From a virus (lineage: Duplodnaviria > Heunggongvirae > Uroviricota > Caudoviricetes), in IMG/VR virus record IMGVR_UViG_3300001149_000089: a DNA stretch of 4,825 nt. One strand, given 5' to 3'. Under the pieces are notes generated by a model that was not told the DNA's origin, did not search any database, and saw nothing but the letters and a program-made list of their open reading frames with translations. Positions 2,447 through 2,702 of the stretch are shown in pieces. Both the position numbers and the translations under genes were made by a program. Numbering within the stretch: the stretch's first letter is position 1; each line of letters opens with the position of its first letter.

Positions 2447-2502
2447 GGTGGCAAAAATGGGGCAAAACACTGCAAAAGGGGCAAAAATGGGGCAAAAAAA
2501 GA
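2447..2502. repeat. Helically phased direct repeats of GGGGCAAAA (five A-tracts at about 10-bp spacing)
   Basis: Units GGTGGCAAAAAT, GGGGCAAAACACT, GCAAAAG, GGGGCAAAAAT, GGGGCAAAAAAA; A-tracts begin at 2453, 2464, 2474, 2483 and 2494. Further copies: inverted GGGCAAAAAT at 2588-2597, AAATGGGGCA at 2672-2681, GAGGGCAAAC at 2687-2696. Confidence 0.7.
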
Positions 2503-2702
2503 GTGGGTTATCGTGGCTTATTGTAGTTGCCGATAATGTTTAACATATTGAAAAATAAATAAAATACTTATGGGTCAGATAGTTGTGATTTTTGCCCTTA
2601 CTTGTTCAGGTTGTATTGTTCTTTCTTTGTAATTTGTTGATTTTCTTGCATTATTTCAGTTCTCTGGTACTAAATGGGGCATATTGAGGGCAAACTTTGC
2701 AA

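Follow-up and report, generated by a model that had tools for sequence, protein, structure and literature searches.

A cluster of short phased repeats beside the 3' end of a broken integrase gene raises two questions, i.e., which protein reads the repeats and which element they belong to. The window, i.e., the whole stretch of 4,825 nucleotides analyzed here, showed a 100% match to E. coli APEC O1 (NC_008563.1, 1516696-1521520). On the upstream side are tail genes of the lambdoid type, cdtABC (type IV), and genes for an alpha/beta hydrolase and an omptin. On the downstream side are an integrase fragment, a DUF1627 fragment, and a frameshifted metal ABC permease remnant, followed by uspF and ompN. 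Approximately 50 kb upstream, the same prophage starts with ttcA, intR, and xisR, of which intR and xisR are intact. Because ttcA, intR, and xisR stand at the left end and uspF beside the right end, the locus was recognized as the Rac integration locus and the window as the right end of the prophage. No tRNA was found in a scan of the window, so the attachment site is not tRNA-targeted. No family match was obtained in Rfam at gathering thresholds.

The cargo genes at this prophage end form one cluster (window 1-1825; locus L001 12024-16813), in which cdtABC (type IV) is accompanied by genes for an alpha/beta hydrolase of 494 aa and for a protease of the omptin family. In 2009C-3133, this prophage end bears the cluster as well. 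Between the omptin gene and the attachment region lies a perfect 13-bp GC-rich hairpin (2144-2176; GGTGAGTCTGGCG ... CGCCAGACTCACC region). Compared with shuffled sequences, it folds much better on both strands (z = -3.6 and -5.9), and CCCCCUUUUCA comes after it on the minus strand. The hairpin had no Rfam match and no terminator call.

The repeats themselves were examined for number and spacing. GCAAAA starts at positions 2451, 2462, 2472, 2481, and 2492, i.e., in steps of 11, 10, 9, and 11 bp, which bears out the five copies at about 10-bp spacing described in an earlier note on this DNA. When up to one mismatch was allowed, seven copies of GGGGCAAAA were counted in the window, where 1.35 would be expected; a count of seven was not reached in any of 200 shuffles that preserved dinucleotides. 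Five of these seven matches fall inside 2447-2700. The block at 2447..2500 (minus strand) was assigned as a predicted P-arm block of five arm-type repeat slots, spaced by 9-11 bp, in the attR of the resident Rac-type cdt prophage. Three slots are strong, i.e., the exact word GGGGCAAAA at 2459-2467, 2478-2486, and 2489-2497 (minus strand), and two are weak, with the degenerate words GTGGCAAAA at 2448-2456 and ACTGCAAAA at 2469-2477 (minus strand). GGGG or GGTG had been said to precede every GCAAAA. This holds for the other copies but not for the third (2469-2477, ACTGCAAAA), which is preceded by CACT. On the int-sense strand, which is the minus strand, the word reads TTTTGCCCC.

Outside the block, at least three further copies in either orientation up to 2696 had been claimed, and they were recovered. 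A single inverted copy, AGGGCAAAA, is placed at 2590-2598 (minus strand), 3 bp from the core. Two degenerate copies, ATGGGGCAT at 2674-2682 and GAGGGCAAAC at 2686-2695, make up a predicted P'-arm pair of arm-type sites (2674..2695, minus strand), 11 bp apart, which reads ATGGGGCAtATTGaGGGCAAAC in the window and ATGGGGCAAATTGGGGGCAAAC in intact Rac. The cluster ends 6-7 bp before the stop codon of the integrase fragment (2703-2705, minus strand), in agreement with the 7 bp given before.

The elements within 2447-2705 are arranged in the order of P arm, 26-bp Rac core, IHF site, phage-borne ttcA start, P' pair, and intR 3' fragment. The core, TTGTTCAGGTTGTATTGTTCTTTCTT, occupies 2602..2627 and is identical in K-12 attL, K-12 attR, and 2009C-3133 attR. 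It contains neither GGGGC nor GCCCC, i.e., the arm word differs from the core. Measured from the crossover, the five P slots are at -109 to -162 bp and the P' pair is at +65 to +86 bp. An exact IHF consensus, AATCAACAAATTA, adjoins the core at 2630..2642 (minus strand) as an H'-like site, and the same sequence at K-12 attL bears an IHF GeF-seq peak (PMC8407004). A second, predicted IHF-like site, TTTCAATATGTTA, with one mismatch to WATCAANNNNTTR, is in the P-arm spacer at 2541..2553 (minus strand). At the same place, K-12 attR has a match with one mismatch, and the consensus is matched exactly by the related phage PHB10 at the position aligned with it.

A phage-type ttcA 5' stub, MQENQQITKKEQYNLNK followed by a stop, was read from the sequence at 2598..2651 (minus strand), with its ATG at 2649-2651. 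The stub is identical to the ttcA 5' end at K-12 attL, and attL was situated within ttcA by Liu et al. 2015 (PMC4632033). The phage-type 5' segment provides the start of ttcA in a simple lysogen. The 3' fragment of the intR-type integrase gene (2703..2933, minus strand; 76 codons and the stop) belongs to the fossil prophage. It is 97-99% identical to the intR 3' end. Over 2697-2933, 2/237 positions mismatch APEC O1 intR and 6/237 mismatch K-12 intR, against 24/27 mismatches past 2933. Because intR homology ends at 2933, the ORF at 2703-3011 is a chance read-through artefact. The position 2933/2934 is a deletion junction, beyond which part of a DUF1627 gene, annotated at 2946-3061 on the opposite strand, is fused.

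In K-12, the Rac attR has the same five-repeat block, spacer, and inverted copy, then TTGTTCAGGTTGTATTGTTCTTTCTT, and then native DNA upstream of ttcA. The two P arms are nearly identical, and a block equivalent to theirs was found in PHB10, phi367, and other phages. The order at attL, in both K-12 and APEC O1, is ttcA, core, TGTAATTTGTTGATTTTCTTGCAT...ATGGGGCAAATTGGGGGCAAAC, and the intR stop. In the alignment, the window tracks attR through the core (2602-2627) and attL beyond it. Over 2628-2671, the window and K-12 attL do not differ, and two mismatches are found among the 25 positions of the P' pair. The window and K-12 Rac therefore share the 26-bp core, the five-repeat P arm, the P' arm, the intR 3' end, and the ttcA/uspF locus. 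They differ in that the arms of K-12 Rac are on separate attachment sites, whereas the window joins the P and P' arms on one molecule. This attP-like arrangement arose because a new phage entered the fossil attL. The core at the junction, the location between ttcA and uspF beside an intR-type gene, and the K-12-like arms all place the site in the Rac type. The two substitutions that separate the fossil P' pair from intact Rac, i.e., 2682 A>T and 2687 G>A, are both within repeat words. Together with the substitutions in the integrase fragment, they hint at relaxed constraint, in numbers too small for proof.

The history of the junction was traced in related genomes. The earlier note had advised locating the core and the junction; the core was placed at 2602-2627, and homology to alternative contexts was found to break at 2602. 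In 2009C-3133, the same cdt/omptin prophage end, with its P arm and core, is joined straight to native DNA before uspF. The megablast match of its attR to the window ends at 2644, and the first differences are at 2628-2629. In N31, a different prophage with sitABCD is homologous to the window exactly from 2449, i.e., from the first repeat. Of 45 evenly spaced rows taken from 2926 matching E. coli records, 15 showed homology that begins exactly at 2602, with ttcA as the neighbor. In these 15 rows, an old attL is present by itself, made up of the core, P' arm, integrase fragment, and DUF1627 fragment. The stub is widespread, being found beside ttcA in about a third of the sample. One example is FDAARGOS_1299 (L019 3501-5788), in which the fossil is alone beside ttcA and identical to the window over 2602-2960.

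The attL of APEC O1 itself (L006 11971-12005) was compared with window 2602-2636, and seven differences were found, i.e., 2617-2619 and four more in 2628-2636. Because the difference begins at 2617, the exchange was confined to TTGTTCAGGTTGTAT at 2602-2616 (15 bp). The two junctions differ to the right of TTGTTCAGGTTGTAT, so the incoming phage brought a variant ttcA 5' segment. No second core was found downstream of the fossil, which means that the fossil is without its own attR. From the solitary fossil attL in other E. coli and the prophage end of 2009C-3133, it follows that APEC O1 gained a new Rac-type phage via the fossil core.

The five-repeat block is thus the P arm of the resident prophage attR, and the fossil is the right half, i.e., the attL that many E. 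coli carry beside ttcA. Since the resident prophage has intact intR and xisR approximately 50 kb upstream, the five-repeat block is not part of the adjacent integrase fragment. The name of fossil attachment site, given to the whole cluster before, fits the right part, i.e., the core-distal P' pair and the integrase fragment, but not the five-repeat block. A repeat block that belonged to housekeeping intergenic sequence would be expected in genomes with no integrase nearby. Instead, the block is confined to the ends of Rac-type prophages, which excludes this origin.

The stub holds the core, the P' arm, the 231-nt integrase fragment, the DUF1627 fragment, approximately 1.2 kb of AT-rich DNA, and the metal ABC permease remnant. 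In the AT-rich part, a 59-aa hydrophobic ORF (MRKILMYLCISIWIVISCVPIILT...) is located at 3720-3899 (plus strand) and is unannotated in RefSeq. The permease remnant (4288-4825, continuing to ~4889 in the genome), near uspF, resembles the end of a sitABCD operon. At the same locus in N31 (L003 4345-7794), a Rac-type prophage has an intact sitABCD among the cargo of its right end. The intact operon at this locus and the sit-like remnant suggest that the fossil descends from a sit-carrying phage. Another instance of prophages abutting at a Rac-like attachment site was seen in Stx2_EH1910 (L018 2469-2509), where prophage PPompW_EH1910 is annotated from ~40 bp past the stop of the IntR-like integrase gene.

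With the attachment site in place, the function of the repeats can be considered. The repeats are probably the IntR arm-type sites of a Rac-family attachment site, as judged from their sequence and arrangement. Residues 5-69 of IntR matched the Pfam domain Arm-DNA-bind_2 (PF12167, E = 3e-26), which is the arm-binding domain of the IntBPP-1 integrase subgroup (PMC8138268). Nine relatives were compared, i.e., PHB10 (69% integrase identity), phi367, CharmingMan, HannyBb, RCIP0098, CobraSix, KPP5665-2, and Stx2_EH1910 (40-44%), and Aeromonas pAEv1818 (35%). With an identity of 40-51%, the N-domain is conserved to the same degree as the catalytic domain (43-52%), whereas the core-binding domain has dropped to 19-29%. 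A conserved N-domain with a diverged core-binding domain is as expected if the arm word is shared while the core specificity changes. A search of solved structures with IntR gave no template for the N-domain; the matches (Int protein, 6emy, and related entries) were confined to the core-binding and catalytic parts.

The word was then counted around the integrase stop of the relatives. Ten attachment regions, i.e., the window and the nine relatives, were used, and all 7-mers were counted without bias from -90 to +560 bp around the int stop. In the ten regions, no 7-mer was repeated more often than TGCCCCA or a close variant (GCCCCAA, TGCCCCT), except for an A/T-rich 7-mer in HannyBb, and all copies of the word were on the int strand. 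Pooled over the ten regions, GCCCC occurred 42 times in sense and once in antisense, relative to the int strand. This is a density of 10.8 per kb, whereas the rest of the loci has 0.56 per kb (Poisson P ~1e-38). The gap between neighboring copies was exactly 11 bp in 17/32 cases, and the blocks were 187-209 bp apart. The layout is constant, i.e., a pair at the int stop, sometimes within the coding sequence, and two to five slots past the core. The P'-type pair was found at the int stop in all ten lineages. This layout is shared across phages with integrases 28-69% identical, whereas the spacers, the cores, and the core-binding domain diverge. An N-terminal arm domain is accompanied by a word that is found on both arms, is unlike the core, and is kept, with its layout, in phages sharing this domain.

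PHB10 is the closest of these relatives. It retains the ttcA target, has a free attP, and keeps the same order of elements, with spacers 39-54% identical to Rac. Its identity to Rac is 55% over the P block, with a gap from an extra PHB10 copy, and 65% over the P' pair, values which are not decisive alone; the 7-mer counts and the strand bias told more. Other records with near-identical IntR have int at the end and offer no free attP, and 683R6 is a prophage excerpt with host flanks. In PhiR12_4 and CF60a (29% identity), no repeated word was found near int.

The earlier note had stressed the A-tracts, i.e., intrinsically bent DNA. Curvature was predicted with a wedge model based on dinucleotide parameters. 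The block at 2447-2500 was predicted to curve 22 degrees per turn, which is at the 99.9th percentile and the third-highest peak of the window, and 0.5% of shuffled blocks reach it. The blocks of PHB10 and pAEv1818 are also curved by prediction. It could be considered from these values that the block is mainly a static bend, by which phased A-tracts fold the P arm with no sequence-specific reader protein. However, no curvature is predicted for CobraSix (59th percentile), RCIP0098 (82nd), and KPP5665-2 (90th), although all three have the GCCCC word phased by 11 bp; with Stx2_EH1910 included, the range is 59th-91st. The invariant element is the G/C word and not the A/T flank, and a purely static bend is highly improbable. 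Judged by this comparison, the conserved part is the GGGGC(A) word, and the A-tract or A/T flank is not. As the relatives keep the word and phasing but not the curvature, the predicted bend looks like a by-product of a T-rich flank specific to Rac and PHB10, possibly a helpful one. Predicted curvature is therefore high in the lineage of the window, but it is absent in relatives that keep the word.

Iterons and binding sites for another regulator had also been named as equal alternatives. By this explanation, the repeats would be iterons or operators of a host or phage regulator, acting on the ttcA start or the cargo genes and unrelated to recombination. A promoter might be overlapped by the P' pair, as the ATG of the phage-borne ttcA is 23-46 bp downstream of it. 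However, the promoter and terminator scan of 1800-3100 gave three promoter-like sites versus 3.2 expected and no terminators. The same layout flanks the crossover in phages that are without ttcA and integrate elsewhere, and in several lineages the P' pair falls within the coding part of int. The neighbors are the omptin gene, the integrase fragment, and the cargo of the prophage end, with no replication gene among them. With no replication gene adjacent and the block restricted to Rac-type prophage ends, iterons are excluded, and a regulatory function of any such kind is very doubtful.

Excisionase is a closer competitor of integrase for these sites. Several recombination directionality factors polymerize along phased direct repeats, and excisionase filaments typically form on tandem direct repeats spaced by one helical turn. 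The one-turn tandem direct repeats fit this general pattern, and they might be sites of XisR (DUF1233), which would polymerize head to tail on direct repeats phased at 10-11 bp. Excisionase sites are usually restricted to one arm, whereas the word is present on the P' arm, as a pair, as well as on the P arm in every lineage. A DUF1233 excisionase accompanies the integrase in eight of the nine relatives, so covariation alone says little, and IntR and XisR are separated in one lineage only, i.e., pAEv1818. The excisionase of this lineage has no DUF1233 match and does not resemble XisR to any real degree (local score 24), but GCCCCAA is retained there in a 2 + 2 layout.

Published gel shifts bear directly on this point. 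In the work of Liu et al. 2015 (PMC4632033), XisR bound an attR fragment: the probe AttR was shifted, and AttM was not. By primer mapping, AttM corresponds to K-12 L007 469-759, with all six P-arm copies, and ends 1 bp before the core, and AttR corresponds to 590-883. AttM was not shifted in this single experiment (PMC4632033) though it holds the five direct copies and, at its end, the inverted copy. XisR therefore needs something at or beyond the boundary of the P arm and the core. This suggests an XisR site that spans the boundary, possibly including the inverted AGGGCAAAA copy. In PHB10, neither the orientation nor the sequence of the inverted copy is kept. The published shift needs the core and the B' side (window equivalent ~2585-2630), which is unusual for an excisionase. 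Taken as an explanation of the repeats, XisR binding is unlikely, and we infer that IntR, rather than another protein, reads the words. Position, phasing, strand bias, and cross-phage conservation agree with the arm-type integrase sites beside an int 3' end that were first proposed for this cluster, in which contact with IntR is the putative part.

Arm sites of this kind are known from other systems. In lambda attP, the arm sites P1, P2, and P'1-P'3 are bound by the N-domain of Int and spread roughly from -150 to +80, and the P and P' sites are inverted relative to each other. The Rac site resembles lambda in its bivalent integrase, tandem sites phased at 10-11 bp, a P' arm that is short and adjoins the int 3' end, a P arm that is longer, and IHF sites placed between arm sites and core. 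The distances in the window (+65 to +86 and -109 to -162) also resemble this geometry. It differs from lambda in the PF12167 arm domain of its integrase, the GCCCC-based word, the single orientation on both arms, and up to five P slots.

The attP of phiCTX (NC_003278), in which R1-R3, IHF sites, and the attP core are annotated, was also compared. Its integrase is 32% identical to IntR, and 43% identical over IntR residues 1-70. As in Rac, pairs of 11-bp repeats are on either side of the core and IHF sites are annotated. The word is GTTCCCA, at +46/+57 and +219/+230, flanking the annotated attP core. PhiCTX differs from Rac in this word, in further repeats R4-R6, in an AAGGTAA/AATTACC-type word, and in its Pseudomonas host and non-ttcA target. 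KT1 has the word TGCCCTA at +24 and +231/+242. Both phiCTX and KT1 are more distant members, in which the word has changed and the layout is retained. KplE1 (CPS-53), a defective E. coli prophage, has attL arm-type sites near its int gene (PMC2951348). Its IntS sites were considered as relatives and rejected, as they share a TAAA motif, lie at the 5' end of intS, where they overlap its promoter, and belong to another integrase lineage (PMC2951348).

The arm-site reading can be put together as follows. An old Rac-type prophage decayed to a stub that kept its attL, i.e., ttcA, core, P' arm, and integrase fragment. A newer Rac-type phage with cdtABC, hydrolase, and omptin genes then integrated by IntR-mediated exchange within TTGTTCAGGTTGTAT (2602-2616), which set the P arm of the newcomer opposite the P' arm of the fossil. 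GGGGCAAAA, or TTTTGCCCC on the int strand, would be contacted by the N-terminal arm-binding domain of IntR. IHF at 2630-2642 and ~2541-2553 would bend the arms, and Int molecules would bridge arm and core. The P arm is probably still used for excision of the resident prophage.

The kind of element is already known, but the arm sites of Rac seem to have been undescribed before. Liu et al. 2015 defined attL, attR, and attB of Rac and never mentioned arm sites (PMC4632033). In a literature search, sparse on older subscription papers, no arm-site description was found for Rac or PF12167 integrases and no report of direct binding by the IntR N-domain, and the motif strings matched only unrelated primers and sequences. 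A wider claim can be raised tentatively. TGCCCCA-type words, phased by 11 bp in one orientation, with a pair by the int stop and a block ~200 bp off, might be the code by which the whole PF12167 (IntBPP-1) subgroup, with Rac and many of the Shiga-toxin phages among its members, marks its arm sites, one that has so far gone undescribed, although the odds are somewhat against so broad a rule. If it is true, the all-direct orientation implies a geometry of arm-to-core bridging unlike that of lambda.

Excision of Rac has already been studied physiologically, but a description of its arm sites was not found. The Rac attachment site can now be described base by base, with its putative arm sites, its IHF sites, and a crossover interval of 15 bp. 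The same word in the same layout is met again in Shiga-toxin phages, cdt phages, and other lambdoid phages whose integrase is of this type. With this simple sequence signature, attP sites and the ends of prophages can be located, and remnants that are still usable as landing pads can be predicted. The junction in APEC O1 is such a case, in which a decayed stub with a usable core captured a new phage carrying virulence genes.
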